Source: an uncultured Verrucomicrobiae bacterium (GTDB lineage: Bacteria; Verrucomicrobiota; Verrucomicrobiia; Chthoniobacterales; Terrimicrobiaceae). Taken from it: 64,000 bases of DNA. Below, piece after piece: positions 17,000 to 64,000 of this stretch; within the stretch, counting starts at the first letter, position 1; each line of letters starts with the position of its first letter. The position numbers and the translations under genes are program-made. The notes under the pieces were generated by a model, which saw only the letters and a program-made list of their open reading frames with translations, had not been told where the DNA came from and ran no database searches. The stretch covers positions 34,282 to 98,281 of the forward strand of contig CAVPOC010000014.1 in the NCBI GenBank assembly GCA_963706955.1. Direction: 5' to 3'.

Positions 17000-17384
17000 T
17001 TGGCGGAATGACCGGATCGGACAGGTACCTTTTGGGCGAACCGACATTCTGGCGCGAGATGACCTCGCCAACGACGGGGCGAGAGCTGGATGAATACTCA
17101 TCTTCAGCGCAGCATGCCCGCGAGTTAGTCACAGCCGATATGATCCGGTCTCAATGCTGCGAGCAAGCCGTTGCGCTTTGGCAGCCGACTTCACCTGCCG
17201 TGCTTTTGAGTGACTTTCGCCATAGCCAATAGAGCGGTGATCATTGGCCGTGAATCGCTTTGAATCCCATCGTGCATTTTTCAGATGCGTTCTTGTCAGT
17301 CGGTCGAGAAGGAGACGATGTAGACAGACCGAAGACTTGGCTGGACGCGCTCTGGAACGAAAGAGCCACTGACATCGATTCGCT

Positions 17385-23012: not shown

Positions 23013-24413
23013 ATGAAATCGTTTCCCCTCTTGCCCAGAATCTTCACGCCCCTTGCAATCACCATCGTCCTATCCGGGTGCGTGAACCCGATCAACCCGC
23101 TCGGACGTTTCGATCCCGCCCCGAAAGTCCCCGGCACCCGGCCCGCGCCGAAGGCCTCCGAGAAATTTGCTTGGGGCATCTCGACCGCGAGCTATCAATA
23201 CGAAGACCCCGCTGTGAAGCCTGGGCAACCAAATTATTTTTCGACCGACTGGGACGTCCTCGTCTCGAAGCGCAAGGCTCCGCCGCGCGGGAACGCGCTC
23301 TATAGTTGGTCGAATTTCGAGAAGGACCTCGACGCGCTGAAAAAAATCCGTCCCACGCACTATCGCTTCAGCATCGAATGGGCGCGCGTTGAACCGAAGC
23401 CGGGGGTCTACAACGAGAAGGCTGTGCGCGGATACGTCGAGATGGCGCGCAGGCTCAAGGCCCTCGGCATTGAGCCCGTCGTCTGCCTCTGGCACTTTAC
23501 CTTCCCCGAATGGCTCTATGACAAAGAGCATCCCGGCCAATCCAACTGGCTCCATCCCCAGGTGCGCGAACGGTGGAATGTCTACGTCGAGAAAATGGTG
23601 CGCGCCACCTCACCCTACGTGAAGTATTACGCTCCGCAGAACGAGCCCAACGGCCAGATCACCACCGCCTACCTCGTCGGCCAATGGCCACCCGCCATGA
23701 CCCTCGCGGTGGACCATTACTGGAAGGCGATCGAGGCCAGCACGGGCATGTTCCGTGACGCGGCGGCGCGCATCAAGTCGATTAAACCCTCCGCAAAGGT
23801 CGTAAGCGTCGAGGCGCTGCCGTGGTGGCAGCGCGCGCCGCTCGACCCGGGAGGGCTCATCTACAACACGATGATTCACGGCAACACCGATCACCTCGAC
23901 CGGGTGTATGATGTCTGCGACATTCTCGGCATCAATTATTACTACTCGCAGGCCCCCGGCCCGATCTCGCTTTTGGCGGGACCATCCATCCGCGGCCGAC
24001 ATTTCACCATGATGGGTTGGCGGATCGATCCTGGCGGTCTTTACAAGGAAATCCAGCGCGTCGCCACCCGCTATGGCAAGCCCATGATGATCACCGAGAA
24101 TGGCATCGCCACGTCCAACGACTCGAAGCGCGAATGGTACATGCAAAACCACCTCGCCGCCATCGGGCGCGCCATCCACGACGGCTACGACGTGCGCGGC
24201 TACTTCGCATGGTCGCTGGCCGACAACTACGAGTGGCACTACGGATACAAGGCGACCTTCGGCCTTGCGAAAATGGACCCCGCCACGAAGGACCGCCTCC
24301 TCAAGCCCTCCGCTGACAAATTCGCGCAAATCATTCGATCGCATCCTACGGTGGGCTCGGTCGCAGGCATTCAGCCCCAACGAGAATACCAACTCGCTCC
24401 CACGCAACATTGA
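23013..24413 (+). CDS. Glycoside hydrolase family 1 lipoprotein
   Basis: Lipobox LSGC; YRFSIEWARVEP, QNEP acid/base, ITENG nucleophile, WSLADNYEW. Confidence 0.92.
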   Translation: MKSFPLLPRIFTPLAITIVLSGCVNPINPLGRFDPAPKVPGTRPAPKASEKFAWGISTASYQYEDPAVKPGQPNYFSTDWDVLVSKRKAPPRGNALYSWSNFEKDLDALKKIRPTHYRFSIEWARVEPKPGVYNEKAVRGYVEMARRLKALGIEPVVCLWHFTFPEWLYDKEHPGQSNWLHPQVRERWNVYVEKMVRATSPYVKYYAPQNEPNGQITTAYLVGQWPPAMTLAVDHYWKAIEASTGMFRDAAARIKSIKPSAKVVSVEALPWWQRAPLDPGGLIYNTMIHGNTDHLDRVYDVCDILGINYYYSQAPGPISLLAGPSIRGRHFTMMGWRIDPGGLYKEIQRVATRYGKPMMITENGIATSNDSKREWYMQNHLAAIGRAIHDGYDVRGYFAWSLADNYEWHYGYKATFGLAKMDPATKDRLLKPSADKFAQIIRSHPTVGSVAGIQPQREYQLAPTQH

Positions 24414-24910
24414 ATGGGAACGAAGTAGCTTTAGTTGCGGGGTCCTTTGACGAAACTAGGCGGGCGACCATCGGAGTTGTGTCGCGCAGAACAGCTCGCA
24501 GAATCAGTGAGTGTGAACTTCCGACATCTGAGACGACGCTTGCCAACGGGCGTGAAAGACCCCGGAGGGTGTTACCGCTCTATCTCTATCTTCATCGCCG
24601 TCTGATCCAACTGTGAATGGCTTCGGCAATGCCGCCATGCAAAGCCGAATGCGGGACATCTGCGCGTCGGGTTTGACTGGGGAACGGCAGGTAGTTGTCA
24701 TTGGGCATAGGCTTCAACGCCTCTCATCCCGCACGTTTCTCTCTACTCTCCCGGATTCAGAGAACTCCTCTCTTATAGTGAGATCATAACAGACTAGTAT
24801 TCGGAACCTCACCCAAATCCCGAAAACAATCCGAAGGACTTCATCCTATTGAGAAGGTTGTCATTGTCGTAGTCCACGGACATAGAGAGGGGTTCGAATC
24901 TCAATCGACG

Positions 24911-25384
24911 GGCGCTAGCGCGCCTCGCCAACGATAAAGCTGTTGGCTCCTGAGGTAGGATTGATTCGGCTGCGCCTCACCCCTGCGGGGCTAACCTGCC
25001 GGTCAGTCTGTCTCGCTGCGCTCGGCTCGAACCCAAGGCTTCGAATCCCAAACAATTGGCGCTAGCGCGCCTCGCCAACGATAAAGCTGTTGGCTCCTGA
25101 GGTAGGATTGATTCGGCTGCGCCTCACCCCTGCGGGGCTAACCTGCCGGTCAGTCTGTCTCGCTGCGCTCGGCTCGAACCCAAGGCTTCGAATCCCAAAC
25201 AATTGGCGCTAGCGCGCCTCGCCAACGATAAAGCTGTTGGCTCCTGAGGTAGGATTGATTCGGCTGCGCCTCACCCCTGCGGGGCTAACCTGCCGGTCAG
25301 TCTGTCTCGCTGCGCTCGGCTCGAACCCAAGGCTTCGAATCCCAAACAATTGGCGCTAGCGCGCCTCGCCAACGATAAAGCTGT
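24911..25384 (-). repeat. Tandem array of three identical 147-bp RtT-like tRNA-linked repeats plus a partial fourth
   Basis: Period 147 (ggcgctagcg at 24911, 25058, 25205, 25352); each unit ends (- strand) in AATCCTACCTCAGGAGCCA, the tRNA-Asn last 19 nt, with CCA ends at 25238, 25091 and 24944. Confidence 0.95.
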
Positions 25385-25459
25385 TGGCTCCTGAGGTAGG
25401 ATTCGAACCTACGACCAATCGGTTAACAGCCGACCGCTCTACCACTGAGCTACTCAGGA
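25385..25459 (-). tRNA. tRNA-Asn (GTT)
   Basis: TCCTGAGTAGCTCAGTGGTAGAGCGGTCGGCTGTTAACCGATTGGTCGTAGGTTCGAATCCTACCTCAGGAGCCA folds as a cloverleaf; CCA encoded. Confidence 0.97.
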
Positions 25460-59559: not shown

Positions 59560-60023
59560 ATCATCCGGGCGTCAATCGCGGTAAAATCTCTCACCCAGCG
59601 TATGCGGAGGTTCAGGTCTCATATACGGCGCCCAGCGCGTCTCTATCTTCCCATGCTTGCCGCGTCGAGAAACGGGATACACAGTCCATCCGCGGAGGCA
59701 CGTGTTGGAAGGTCACCTCGCGGCGGGTGTTCGAGCTCTTCAGCCAGACAGCGTCCGCTCCATGAATTTGAGCATTGTAGATCATGCTCTTGCGAAGAAA
59801 ATTCCAGCCCTCGATCGCTTTCAAAGGCTAGGCGCCCAATTACCTTGAATGGTCGCGTCGGACGATTCGTGAGAATCGGGATCTGCGCGTCCGGCGGCTT
59901 GGCCGGAAAATCCTGGAGCGATTTGTAGTAGACGGCGGTCGATTTTACGGACGCGCAGCCTGCGAGCAAAACCAAGATTCCCGCAGAGCCTGCAAGAATC
60001 AGAGTTGCACGAGGCGAGCTCAT
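59560..60023 (-). CDS. Putative lipoprotein, probably frameshifted
   Basis: LLAGC lipobox; RPFKVIGRL..; continuation ([16 protein letters not shown]) in another frame; 3' end uncertain. Confidence 0.5.
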
Positions 60024-60054
60024 GAGCGTTAATGTACGGCAATATTGCGGTGCC

Positions 60055-60564
60055 GTGAAAACGAAAATCGTAATCAGCGCGGCTTTGGCCCTTGCCGTGG
60101 TCTTTGAGCTGGCACAGGCGGGTCCTCAAATTGGTATTTCTGCGCGAGCGGGCGCTGGCTGGTGTGCTCCGGCGAGCACAGTTTGTCCGCCCTTTAAGCC
60201 TTATCCGAAGTTCGTTACTTGCGCCTGGCCGACTTACTACTACCCGTGGTATTATGGCTACGTCTCGTCGCCAGTCGACGCTTCGACCAGCTTCAGCAAT
60301 GTCTCGCCAGTTTTCGACAACGGCCAAACGGGAATTTACCGCGTTCCGGCCCCGATCATTTCTCCTCCGCCGGTGATAACTCCGGCCGGGTCCCACTTTC
60401 GGCTGGCAACGCTGATTTCCCCCGCAGAAGTGCGGCCTTCCTCTGGATTAACAGACCAAGGAAGGCCGCCTCTGATTTTAGAGAGGCTCGCTTCTCGCCC
60501 TCGCGTCACCGGTGACCCGGCGAAGTCGCTCTGCGGCGCTTGCCGCTTCGAATTCCCCGGTTGA
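60055..60564 (+). CDS. Hypothetical secreted protein
   Basis: GTG start, signal peptide ..ELAQA, Tyr/Pro-rich; C-terminus uncertain. Confidence 0.45.
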   Translation: MKTKIVISAALALAVVFELAQAGPQIGISARAGAGWCAPASTVCPPFKPYPKFVTCAWPTYYYPWYYGYVSSPVDASTSFSNVSPVFDNGQTGIYRVPAPIISPPPVITPAGSHFRLATLISPAEVRPSSGLTDQGRPPLILERLASRPRVTGDPAKSLCGACRFEFPG

Positions 60565-60636
60565 CAAAGCAGCGGCGAATACCGAATTAAGATCTCACGG
60601 CTACGCGCAAGAATGCGTTGGGCCAACGCCATCGAT

Positions 60637-60709
60637 GGTGACCGTAGCTCAATGGTAGAGCTCCAGATTGTGGTTCTGGCTGTTGCGGGTTCGAGTCCCG
60701 TCGGTCACC
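60637..60709 (+). tRNA. tRNA-His (GTG)
   Basis: G-1 then GTGACCG TAGCTCAATGGTAGAGC T CCAGA TTGTGGT TCTGG CTGTT GCGGG TTCGAGT CCCGT CGGTCAC C; full CCA not encoded as written. Confidence 0.96.
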
Positions 60710-60710
60710 C

Positions 60711-61232
60711 ACCGACGGGACGAGAACGTAGTTCGACTACCCTGCGCGTTAGCGCCTTTCCGGGCCGAAGCCACTTTTGTAGAGCTCGCCGTAGGCGAGA
60801 TAATCCCGTCGGTCACCCACGTAGTTCGACTACCCTGCGCGTTAGCGCCTTTCCGGGCGAAGCCACTTTCGTAGAGCTCGCCGTAGGCGAGATAATCCCG
60901 TCGGTCACCCACCGACGGACGAGAACGTAGTTCGACTACCCTGCGCGTTAGCGCCTTTCCGGGCCGAAGCCACTTTTGTAGAGCTCGCCGTAGGCGAGAT
61001 AATCCCGTCGGTCACCCACCGACGGGACGAGAACGTAGTTCGACTACCTGCGCGTCAGCGCCTTTCCGGCGAAGCCATTTTCGTAGAGCTCGCCGTAGGC
61101 GAGATAATCCCGTCGGTCACCCACCGACGGGACGAGAACGTAGTTCGACTACCCTGCGCGTTAGCGCCTTTCCGGGCCGAAGCCACTTTCGTAGATCTCG
61201 CCGTAAGGCGAGATGAGTCCCGTCGGTCACCC
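60711..61232 (+). repeat. Five tandem RtT-like tRNA-His-linked repeats (92-110 bp)
   Basis: Units 60711-60818, 60819-60910, 60911-61017, 61018-61122, 61123-61232, each ending in TCCCGTCGGTCACCC (tRNA-His 3' end). Confidence 0.95.
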
Positions 61233-61403
61233 TTCTTCAGTGGCCAAAATACTCTGAGAATGGCTTGAATAAAGGCTGTACGGACGATCCAGCAAATTCC
61301 CTTGCATGTGCAGTTGGTTGCAGTTTCGGCGATATTTTTGTCCTGCTTTGTCCTGCAAGATTGGTGAAAAAAACGAGGTCTGCCGTGAAGGGAGCTGGCG
61401 AAG

Positions 61404-61433
61404 CACCGGGTTCGAATCCCGTTAGGGTCGCCA
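61404..61433 (+). pseudogene. tRNA 3'-half fragment (Glu-like), att-like remnant
   Basis: CACCGGGTTCGAATCCCGTTAGGGTCGCCA: T-arm, acceptor 3' strand and CCA, with no D or anticodon arm upstream; isotype inferred. Confidence 0.7.
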
Positions 61434-61556
61434 GAGGCGATGGCGAAGCCAATTCGAACCTCGGTTCGACTACCTGCGCGCCAGCGCAATTCTTACCAGC
61501 CGAAGGCCACTTTCGTAGAGCCCTGCGCAGCAGGGATAATCCCGTTAGGGTCGCTA
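61434..61556 (+). repeat. RtT-like unit with Glu-type tail
   Basis: Body homologous to the His units; ends AATCCCGTTAGGGTCGCTA. Confidence 0.88.
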
Positions 61557-62093
61557 CTCATTTAGAGTGGCAAATCGCCTTGTACATAAGATAAATAGAA
61601 GCTCTGCGTGCGATTCGCTAAATTCTCTTCAATGTGCAGTTGAAGGCAGTCCTGGCGGGAAAATTGTTACCTTTTGTTACCCTGTTTGGCTCCTGGCAGT
61701 CCCAGATCTTCAGATCTTCTTCCATTCCATCGGAACAAGCATTGTTGTGGATCAGGTCCAGAGCGGGCGGGAGCACCCAACTCATCGAGTGTGGCGGACT
61801 AAATCCGACCCACGCGTTCGAGCTCCGTAGCTCCGGGTCTGGTGCGTTACGAAAGCGGGGCAAGTCGTCTGGTCCTTGCGGGCCGCGCCGATCGCGAGTG
61901 AAAAAATCCCTTCGTTTCACTTCATTGCGGCCGATGCTAAGCTTTTCGCCGTGCAGGGTATCGTGCGCCAGCAACCCTCGGCATTGATTTCGTCGGGTCA
62001 CGACGGCGAATTGCGGGATTTTTCTGCGTTGTCGGCGCCTTTGCTCTTGGCTAATCTGTGGCGAAAGCGCCATTTTCCGCGGAAATCATTGCG

Positions 62094-62534
62094 ATGAAAT
62101 CGGGACACCTATTTCGCTACGTAATCATGACCATTGGAATGGGCGCCCTCGCGGGATGCGCGAGTCCGGGCTGGAGGGAAGTGGATGCTTACGGCCGCCT
62201 TTGGAAAGTCTTCCCGCTGGAGGAGGTTGGGATCGAGGTGCAGGTTCAGGACGCCGCGGGCACCCCGCTTTCCGGCTATCGTTTCGCCGTGCTGGATCAA
62301 AAAGTCGGAAATCTGACCGGCTATCAGGAGATTGAGATCGGGGGAAGTGTCATTTTCCTGCGTCCGCGCTCCGAGCCGGTCATCTTCAGCATCGAGGGTC
62401 GAGCCGAGGATGGGGCGGTATATCCCGTTTATCGCCAGTTCCAGCGTTCAGACCTTAAATGCAGCCTGCGGTTGGTGTTCCGGTTTGATTCGGAGGGCTA
62501 TTGCAGCTTTATTTCTTCATCAAAGGTCCGCTGA
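62094..62534 (+). CDS. Hypothetical lipoprotein
   Basis: MKSGHLFRYVIMTIGMGALAGC lipobox. Confidence 0.6.
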   Translation: MKSGHLFRYVIMTIGMGALAGCASPGWREVDAYGRLWKVFPLEEVGIEVQVQDAAGTPLSGYRFAVLDQKVGNLTGYQEIEIGGSVIFLRPRSEPVIFSIEGRAEDGAVYPVYRQFQRSDLKCSLRLVFRFDSEGYCSFISSSKVR

Positions 62535-62537
62535 AAT

Positions 62538-63563
62538 CATTGTGTTACGAAACGGTCACAACGGCTGAAACGATTGGATCGGACGCTGGTTTAGTGCTGG
62601 ATAATGCGGCGGAACGCCCGTCTTGATCCATTGCGGGAACGAAAGAAACTTCTCTTGGCGATGAGGCGTTGCAAGGCTTGGAGGAGGCGATTCGCTCGGA
62701 ATCGCCGGGGATTGAGATCGTCGATTTTCTCGGGTGGCGCGTTTTCGTCGAAGCGAAGAGCGTACCGATTTATGTGCGCGGTCTCGCGGACGGTGCACTC
62801 ATGCTGCGGTCGCCTTTGGGAACGCTCGTGGAAGGACCTTGATCAGTACCTGAAATTTGCTCCTCTACGCAAATTGCGGTCTCGTCGTGACGAAAGGCGC
62901 CGGCTTCTGTCTCGACCGGAACGGCCGGCTTTCGTTGGAGCGAACAATCCCGGGCGGCCTCGTCGCGGCGCCAAGCGTGGGTCGTGCTGGGTTGTAAGGC
63001 GCGTTACGGCAGCACCCGCGTGCGCCTGCTCTGGGTAGAGACCTCTAAGGAGGTGCTCTTGTTGGTGACCAACCAAGAGCCCGAGGAGATGCCGCCGAAC
63101 TGGTGGCCGCTCTGTCCCCACACCAACGTTGGCGCATCGAACTGTTCTTCCGCTGGATCAAATGCATTTTGGGTTGTCGGCATTGGCTGGCGGAGTCCCC
63201 CCGCGGGGTGGCCATTGAAATTTATCTCGCCCTCATCGCCGCTCTGCTCCTGCAACTCTACAGCGGGCGGCGTCCCAACCGCCGGATGCTGGAGCTTATC
63301 CAACTTTATCTGCTCGGGGTGGCCAGCAGCCAAGATCTGCACGCTGGCTGGCAACGCCAATTGCTGCGTCTGCAGAAAAGCAAAGCACCACAATCTTAAC
63401 TTGCCTGCTAGGCGTCTTTGTCGCTCGAAGTCGCCGAGCATTCGCATGCCCCAATGCTGCCCTCTGTCTTCGCACCTGCACGCTTCCCTCTTTTATCGCA
63501 GCCCTCACCCGACATCAAAATCCTGCAAGGAGCCAACAGCAATTTCCTTGCCGAACACTACTG
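62538..63563 (+). mobile_element. Degenerate IS4-family insertion sequence
   Basis: QRWRIELFFRWIKCILGCRH..ES..G..IEIYLALIA transposase C-terminus (63103-63399); candidate ends CATTGTGTTACGAAA (62538) and TTGCCGAACACTACTG (to 63563); N-terminal part broken. Confidence 0.7.
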
Positions 63564-63846
63564 GCGTCCCGCCTGCGATTCGCACGAAGACAGGCGAGAC
63601 GCCGCGAGACGCCTGTCCCACATTTTCTGACCGGCTTCCACAAAATGAGACACTACCAAATCTCAAAGTTAGAATGGTTCTCGCAAGTCGCCTCCGCGAA
63701 ACCCGAGGGGAGGGCGAGCCTCCCGGCGAGCGGCTACCTGATTCATTTCCATCAAAGAGTTGGACGATCGTGCGGTCAAAACTACGGTCGCCTCGGAGAG
63801 GCAACCCTGCCATTTACAAGGTAGGGACGGCTCTCCGAGCCGTCCG
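63564..63846. repeat. Cluster of REP-like palindromes of three types
   Basis: GCGTCCCGCCTG..ACAGGCGAGACGCC..TGTCCCACA (63564-63622); GGAGGGCGAGCCTCCCGGCGAGC (63709-63731); GGTAGGGACGGCTCTCCGAGCCGTCCG (63820-63846). Confidence 0.6.
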
Positions 63847-64000
63847 TTGCTTTCCTGGAAGCGTCCCATTGTTTTCGAAATGTGGTATCAGTTGTGAGAT
63901 TGGCCCGAACAGGGTCGATGGGTGGCCGGCCAGGGTTTGCCACTCGGCGAAGGTCCACCAAGCGGCGATTCGGACCGTGGCCACCAAGCGAATCGATAGC

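Follow-up and report, generated by a model that had tools for sequence, protein, structure and literature searches.

Behind the tyrT gene of Escherichia coli (rttR), non-coding units of 178 bp are repeated in tandem on the strand of the tRNA, and each of them ends in a copy of the tRNA 3' end. The copy number of the units is fractional. Repeats of this RtT type came to light with the first tyrT sequences, and to our knowledge their origin and role have never been explained. According to the available text of one report, the rtT RNA is involved in the processing of the tyrT transcript and probably in the stringent response, with a mode of action that is unknown (10.1101/2024.07.17.603846). The palindrome behind Methanopyrus tRNA genes, as far as the accessible part of its description goes (PMC5217627), is unrelated to the units reported here.

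The window that we analysed is a stretch of 64,000 nucleotides (genome G000, contig C14, positions 34282-98281), and its base 64000 coincides with the end of the contig. In this window, five tandem units lie head to tail directly 3' of a tRNA-His gene. About 200 bases beyond the array, an orphan tRNA-Glu fragment is followed by one further unit that ends in the tail of the fragment. A unit consists of a host-specific spacer, a conserved body of ~85 nt, the T-loop remnant AATC and a copy of the host tRNA tail, which comprises the T-stem 3' strand, the acceptor 3' strand and the end of the tRNA. A covariance model of the unit (R1) was built from 12 units of G000. The features are as follows.

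60638-60710, + strand: tRNA-His(GUG) gene, host of the array (ARAGORN; Rfam tRNA, 65.9 bits)
60711-60819, + strand: unit H1, with closing-helix 5' strand, body and tRNA-His tail copy
60820-60911, + strand: unit H2, 92 nt (R1 match 60815-60904, 74.5 bits; tail spacing 92)
60912-61018, + strand: unit H3 (R1 match 60910-61011, 99.2 bits)
61019-61123, + strand: unit H4 (R1 match 61018-61116, 100.4 bits)
61124-61232, + strand: unit H5, last of the His array (R1 match 61123-61226, 96 bits)
61233-61395, + strand: island end resembling a P' arm (direct repeats TTTGTCCTGC, twice at 61337-61356; alignment with post-tail sequences)
61403-61433, + strand: orphan tRNA-Glu(UUC) 3' fragment of 31 nt, T-arm to CCA (repeat families; no tRNA called there)
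61434-61554, + strand: Glu-tailed unit of the same body family (R1 match, fold, tree grouping)
61555-61720, + strand: second island end resembling a P' arm (TTGTTACC twice; 70% to 61268-61331)
24893-25403, - strand: tRNA-Asn array of body type B, 147 nt x 3.5 (Tandem Repeats Finder; same architecture as the His-type units)

At gathering thresholds, Rfam returned two matches for the whole window, both to tRNA, and none to RtT (RF00391). When E values up to 10 were accepted for 60500-61800, six matches were obtained, none of them to RtT or to any other family than tRNA. ARAGORN and Rfam call only tRNA-His in this interval, and no cloverleaf was detected in the units.

Each His unit ends in the string TCCCGTCGGTCACCC, which corresponds to the 3' strands of the T-stem and of the acceptor of tRNA-His. 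A repeat search found this string six times, in the tRNA itself (60696) and at 60804, 60896, 61003, 61108 and 61218. The tail copies are 14-17 nt long, and their T-loop part reads AATC in the units versus GAGTC in tRNA-His; the tail of H5 starts with GAGTC, as in the T-loop of the tRNA. H1 matched R1 at 60711-60812 with 109.9 bits (tail copy at 60804), and H2 is devoid of the closing-helix 5' strand and of the 5' half of the second helix. Two blocks of the body also occur six times each, and their sixth copies lie in the Glu-tailed unit: a 54-nt 3' block (61492-61545, 74% to the reference) and a 29-nt 5' block (61464-61492, 90%). The open reading frames across the array run through its units of 92-109 nt in shifting frames. 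Upstream of tRNA-His, an ORF of 180 aa (60022-60564) had no Pfam match and was covered by contigs from three RNA libraries at ~95% identity.

Tandem Repeats Finder reported the array at 60819-61232 with a period of 105 nt (3.9 copies, 94% matches), and an alternative period of 213 nt (1.9 copies, 95%). Positions 60917-61019, in H3, are 100% identical to 60718-60820, in H1, over 103 nt. Both the identity and the 213-nt period show that the array has grown at least partly by the duplication of multi-unit blocks, and the tandem amplification that was proposed in the preliminary description of this DNA is thus borne out.

The Glu-tailed unit matched R1 at 61443-61548 with 74.4 bits (E ~1e-19), far beyond chance, and together with the body-block copies this establishes that it shares the body of the His units. 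An exact 17-nt repeat, AATCCCGTTAGGGTCGC, is found in the orphan fragment (61415-61431) and at the end of the unit (61538-61554). The tail, earlier called Glu-like, can be assigned to tRNA-Glu(UUC) by way of a relative (G011), where the same tail belongs to a tRNA-Glu(UUC) gene called by ARAGORN with a unit 10 nt downstream. The hairpins compared earlier are as they were described, with CCCTGC-GCA-GCAGGG in the Glu-tailed unit versus CTCGCC-GTA-GGCGAG in the His units, and GCGC-GCCA-GCGC versus GCGC-GTTA-GCGC. In addition, a mini-hairpin recognised by eye, GGC-GAA-GCC, is flipped to GCC-GAA-GGC in the Glu-tailed unit. GGCGAU and the acceptor end of the tail form the predicted closing helix of this unit.

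The preliminary description had read this unit as a neighbouring His body with a swapped tail. The body tree does not agree with that reading, as the unit groups with the tRNA-Glu(UUC) units of two relatives (G010, G011) and apart from the adjacent His units. A chimeric assembly is also unlikely, since the order of tRNA-His, island end, Glu fragment and island end recurs in two other genomes (G001, G013). The Glu fragment is followed by a unit in G000 and by none in G001 or G013; insertion of a unit, its loss between the two 17-nt repeats and the choice of the first tail by an island would each account for this difference. The composite is common to three species of the genus (G000; L219 in G001; L212/L220 in G013), and in G013 it has an extra third tRNA fragment with an island end, each fragment plus its arm measuring a few hundred bases.

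The 5' end of a unit is complementary to its own tail, whereby the unit closes into a multi-helix junction. In the closing helix (P1), the unit 5' end pairs with AT and the T-stem 3' strand of the tail, and the body meets the tail at the T-loop remnant AATC, as had been described. The second helix (P2) is formed by GAAC/GTTC, and the third (P3, CTRC/GYAG) encloses GCGC-GNNA-GCGC and the three-pair mini-hairpin GGC-GAA-GCC, whereas the fourth (P4) is a variable hairpin. Single units folded to the closed junction with z-scores of -1.3 to -3.2. The closing helix is predicted to be retained even in a different register, as in the Glu lineage, which is not what simple inheritance of a T-stem would give.

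RNAalifold on a plain MAFFT alignment of the 12 units from G000 predicted 23 pairs, 11 of which had compensatory changes. Larger alignments of 59 and 135 distinct copies were fitted to the model and are biased to its structure, and the plain alignment agrees with them. Among the 59 copies, 95.4% of the cells were paired and 154 cells carried double changes (6-28 in slid controls). Among the 135 copies, 94.3% of the cells were paired versus 83.0% after shuffling, and there were 358 double-change cells versus 104 in the shuffled and 17-55 in the slid controls. In both alignments, 15 of the 23 pairs had double changes. Covariation thus appears in plain and model-fitted alignments alike, and shows that the body is selected for its structure, as the preliminary description had supposed.

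Outside P1, G-T/T-G combinations outnumbered A-C/C-A combinations (38 vs 19), which speaks modestly for folding of the tRNA-sense strand; with P1 included, the two were nearly equal (88 vs 80). Loop sequences were also considered as hints of a DNA hairpin and dropped: DNA-type C-GNA-G triloops fit in only 38 of 135 P4 loops, and the GNNA loop within P3 (112 of 135) suits RNA and DNA alike.

The G000 assembly (4.16 Mb) has 39 tRNA genes according to ARAGORN. Downstream of six of them, Pro(CGG), Ala(CGC), Ala(GGC), Gly(GCC), Asn and His, the 12-mer of their own tail recurs. Units lie directly behind these six genes and behind tRNA-Tyr, on the same strand; the His-type body is found at Pro, both Ala, Gly, His and Tyr, and the Tyr units are kept apart by islands several kb long. 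R1 had 26 matches in G000 at E<=1, and the strongest 17 (68-112 bits) all had a tRNA tail. The tail-less matches that were inspected (C5:159942, C5:155293, C13:79069) were weaker or decayed. tRNA-Ala(GGC) and its unit are ~1.28 kb apart (C3, ~568900-570150), and to the eye the DNA between them resembles an inserted opposite-strand gene, possibly an insertion sequence. On the minus strand of C9 (102403-102484), ARAGORN also called a tRNA without an assigned type, with an anticodon of two bases (ca).

To describe the range of the family, R1 was searched in other genomes. Of the genomes sampled, 64 of 101 in the order had matches, as had 49 of 60 in the family to which the window belongs. In an even sample of the phylum, only one of 150 genomes besides G000 matched at E<=1e-5, and this one is from the same order. 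A pattern scan of all species genomes listed at least 119 stretches and is too loose to stand without the model, which confirmed 12 of the 80 loci put to it. Among the matches listed, ten of these 12 are labelled Verrucomicrobiae, Verrucomicrobiia, Verrucomicrobia, Terrimicrobiaceae, Chthoniobacter or Prosthecobacter, and two are from MAGs with other labels.

Upstream of the model matches, on the same strand, ARAGORN confirmed 14 host tRNA genes, namely His, Tyr, Gly(GCC), Arg(ACG), Ala(CGC, GGC), Glu(CUC, UUC), Pro(CGG, UGG, GGG) and Ser(CGA, UGA, GGA). Asn is an additional host by tail sequence, from one unit in G006 with a tRNA-Asn tail. The body is therefore carried on many different tRNA tails, and on this point the earlier claim was well founded. 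With hundreds of copies, two body types and ~15 host tRNAs, the family is large and well sampled in these soil bacteria, and it provides the material to tell an RNA of tRNA processing from a recombination device or a mobile element.

The second body type (B), with the sequence GTTCGAGCC GAGCGNAGCGAGACAGAC ... CCGAATCAATCC in the tRNA-Asn array of the window, had blastn hits in 26 of the 61 genomes searched, G000 counted. Its tails are from Asn, Ser(CGA), Glu(UUC) and others. Behind the tRNA-Glu(UUC) gene of G011, a unit of the first type (A) is followed by one of type B, and both are Glu-tailed, while in G017 two His sub-lineages occur within one array. The last unit of most arrays is partial: it retains its 5' portion, with the spacer, the P1 5' strand, P2 and sometimes the GCGC hairpin of P3, and breaks off at a different point in each locus (for example, G000 C6 ~17200-17235, C10 ~141402-141445 and C3 ~568700-568750; L207, L214, L298). 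Such a terminal partial unit may be one that has decayed, or it may be a relic of the process by which arrays form.

The body tree was used to compare the history of the units with that of their hosts. Of 144 model matches, those at named loci were removed and identical rows merged, which left 120 rows; the tree rests on ~85 columns and hence is coarse. Labels were counted on 70 rows from the genus with tails that could be classified by pattern, and 25 'orphan/other' rows, including some Ser tails missed by the patterns, were dropped. Host labels changed 16 times on the tree, compared with 48 times on average and never fewer than 41 after shuffling, and with a least possible number of 10, while genome labels changed 39 times (shuffled mean 49). 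Within the genus, the bodies thus track the host tRNA, and the incongruence that had been put forward as a mark of mobility was not observed.

Nor did we find sites with and without units at tRNA-His that would point to recent insertion. The gene is followed by units in seven genomes (G000, G009, G017, G004, G018, G015, G011) and directly by an island end in six (G007, G001, G003, G013, G005, G002). In G004 and G013, His-tailed units lie on the far side of the island, behind a tRNA-His fragment of 20-24 nt, which indicates that the 'empty' tRNA-His sites are sites of displaced units. The tRNA-Ala(CGC) locus has conserved flanks on both sides; it carries units in G000, G001, G010 and G015, decayed remnants in G002 and G009, and no units in G006, a pattern that shows inheritance with decay. 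From the host switches and the mixed arrays, the units must nevertheless have reached new tRNAs in the past.

Islands of the genus recombine in the same T-loop/T-stem region in which the units join their tails, as the preliminary description had noted for tRNA-targeting integrases. Modules of ~150 nt follow tRNA tails directly, in the window and at three more places in G000 (C8 ~23353-23520, C13 61050-61225 and C13 71476-71650). They are homologous to each other, with a conserved block (ATAAATA.AG..TCT.CGG.CGATT) and TGCA motifs, and then carry two or three direct repeats of 8-10 nt that differ by tRNA type (TTTGTCCTGC, TTGTTACC, TTGGCACC). The module at 61233-61395 aligns with the sequences after tRNA-Tyr and other tails, and modules of its type directly follow tRNA-His in G001, G013 and G005. 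They have the appearance of P' arms that belong to related tyrosine-integrase islands.

At tRNA-Tyr of G000, one such module opens an island of 10 kb whose end has direct repeats of the same kind, a PF00589 integrase (31.3 bits vs a cut-off of 27.1), a DnaB-type helicase and a 60-nt tRNA-Tyr fragment (C13:71285-71343). A second Tyr island, on the same contig, is bounded on one side by the unit 1 tail and on the other by a tail remnant of 12 nt before unit 2. Islands begin at unit tails, including that of Tyr unit 1 with its tail remnant, which shows that the unit tails are real secondary attachment sites, and tools that rely on tRNA fragments for island finding will therefore misplace island ends here. 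The body itself was considered as an island P arm or a remnant thereof, and this was rejected, as the arms beside true att sites are without the body.

RNA evidence came from four metatranscriptome runs on 59900-61900, all available as contigs, the best two being from one study. One contig (60555-60756) runs from upstream through tRNA-His into unit 1, a second (60616-60725) covers tRNA-His into unit 1 without mismatch, and a third (60896-61032) covers H3 without mismatch and with an extra G at 60916. These contigs give weak support to co-transcription of tRNA-His and the units, given that metatranscriptome contigs may hold DNA and that their strand and ends are not given. The intervals 61039-61239 and 61642-61900 had no cover by RNA contigs, which is uninformative as repeats collapse in contigs. 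The extra G (X16 and X19 contigs) changes CCGACGGACG to CCGACGGGACG and restores the closing helix of H3; it is a strain difference or an assembly slip. In a scan of 60300-61900, no promoter-like site and no terminator-like site on the + strand were found, and the one terminator-like site on the minus strand was no more than in shuffled sequences.

We consider it about an even chance that the units represent an order-specific family of structured tRNA-trailer modules of RtT-like design that are not homologous to RtT. The units would be transcribed with the tRNA from its promoter and would fold one after another, with the tail copy providing the closing helix and a tRNA-like 3' end. Unequal homologous recombination between the tail-plus-spacer repeats would make arrays grow and shrink and, rarely, a body would be joined to the tail of another tRNA, probably by recombination at T-loop-like edges (TTCGAA / AATCC). 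Of this account, we infer the RNA level, the processing and the way in which hosts change; the structure with its covariation, the distribution and hosts, the block duplication within arrays and the use of unit tails by islands are observed. Vertical descent and unequal crossover fail to explain host switching, given ~15 tRNAs, shared tails and the mixed arrays of G017 and G011.

The preliminary description had instead proposed a non-autonomous mobile element, in which the unit moves as DNA, possibly folded and single-stranded, into the T-loop or 3' end of a tRNA gene or fragment, is mobilised in trans by an integrase, an HUH enzyme or a reverse transcriptase, and regenerates the tail with each insertion. 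The structured body, the many tails and the tandem growth on which it relied held up. No enzyme, no viral copy and, off the tRNA tails, only a few decayed copies were found. One body lies behind 14 confirmed tRNA genes and Asn, the B body is joined to tails of Asn, Ser(CGA) and Glu(UUC), and both G011 (A and B) and G017 (two His sub-lineages) have mixed arrays, all of which suits such an element. The edges of the body mimic T-loop halves, the 5' end of each lineage matches the host tail, the islands recombine in the same T-loop/T-stem stretch, and the Glu fragment has a unit in G000 and none in G001 or G013. Against movement, the bodies follow the host tRNA within the genus, and the integration of an island at the first tail, or recombination between tails, accounts equally well for the sites that lack units. 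Only few low-scoring or decayed copies lie off tRNA tails, and the G000 matches do not show the many dispersed copies, unrelated to one gene class, that are typical of MITEs or IS200-IS605 elements. No enzyme adjoins the units, the window ORFs at 61618-64000 having no Pfam match, the body is absent from the islands with an integrase that were examined, and of 12 exact pattern hits in viral contigs none was confirmed by the model. A duplex circle of 92-147 bp is also too small for the usual integrase chemistry. Mobility is partly supported, for deep time only and without support from recent history or enzymes, and as an explanation of the units we regard the mobile element as unlikely.

A related proposal, which we think less probable again, is a self-propagating module templated by the tRNA tail, in which a folded copy of the tRNA-sense strand, made of RNA or of DNA that is accessible where tRNA genes are heavily transcribed, would become attached again to a tRNA 3' end through copying of the target tail. 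This would make the matched closing helix, seed arrays with partial ends and occasionally capture a new tRNA, and the arrays would in turn serve as landing pads for islands that attack tRNA tails. If true, the module would found a new class of non-autonomous elements restricted to tRNA genes, and would account in general for the origin of RtT-like repeats in different phyla. Landing pads at the DNA level could also be the very reason why arrays persist, with the tail copies as extra attachment sites that could favour tandem accretion and so serve the islands, or could spare the working tRNA from recombination and so serve the host. Island ends right after H5 and the Glu-tailed unit, the island after Tyr unit 1 with the 12-nt remnant at its far end, the islands at tails in G004 and G013, and the PF00589 integrase in one Tyr island all point in this direction. 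A duplex attachment site needs the tail alone, however, which leaves the ~85-nt body and the compensatory changes in five helices unexplained, and landing may be a side effect and not the reason for which the units exist; we find this reading very doubtful. Finally, the units could be scars of integrated elements, that is, small islands after internal deletion with the tails as displaced tRNA fragments. Displaced fragments are indeed present (the 60-nt tRNA-Tyr fragment and the 20-24-nt tRNA-His fragments of G004 and G013), and such fragments are described as island endpoints in the available text on Islander (PMC4383910). As in island scars, the repeat is identical to the tRNA 3' end from the crossover on, in tail copies of 14-17 nt; yet between the tRNA and the repeated tail there are units of 92-147 nt without a gene, and not integrase-bearing cargo. 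The island arms beside true att sites lack the body, a shared covarying structure is not expected at different tRNAs, and the units are without ORFs and conserved across the order, which makes scars hardly credible.

In the literature on tRNA-trailing repeats that was searched, we found no description of this family, and one may exist. The trailer modules that we favour resemble RtT (RF00391) in that they are tandem, non-coding, located behind a tRNA on its strand, ending in the tRNA 3' end and present in fractional copy number. Unlike RtT, the units are 92-147 nt long rather than 178, one body serves ~15 tRNAs and is joined by a second body type, the closing helix is matched to each host tail, and the family is confined, among the genomes sampled, to one order, apparently of Verrucomicrobiota. 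With tRNA-attachment islands, as portrayed in the available portions of two reports (Islander; Ms6-type T-loop attB; PMC4383910, PMC1762012), they share repeated tRNA tails downstream of the gene, over the stretch, T-loop to 3' end, that islands of the genus use as well. In contrast to islands, the units have neither cargo nor integrase, have a conserved folded body that islands lack, and are inherited with the host tRNA within the genus. Most likely, the units are produced as structured RNA together with the tRNA, have multiplied by unequal recombination and are exploited by islands as additional attachment sites, and the family looks like a new one, a relative of RtT by design rather than a proven jumping element.
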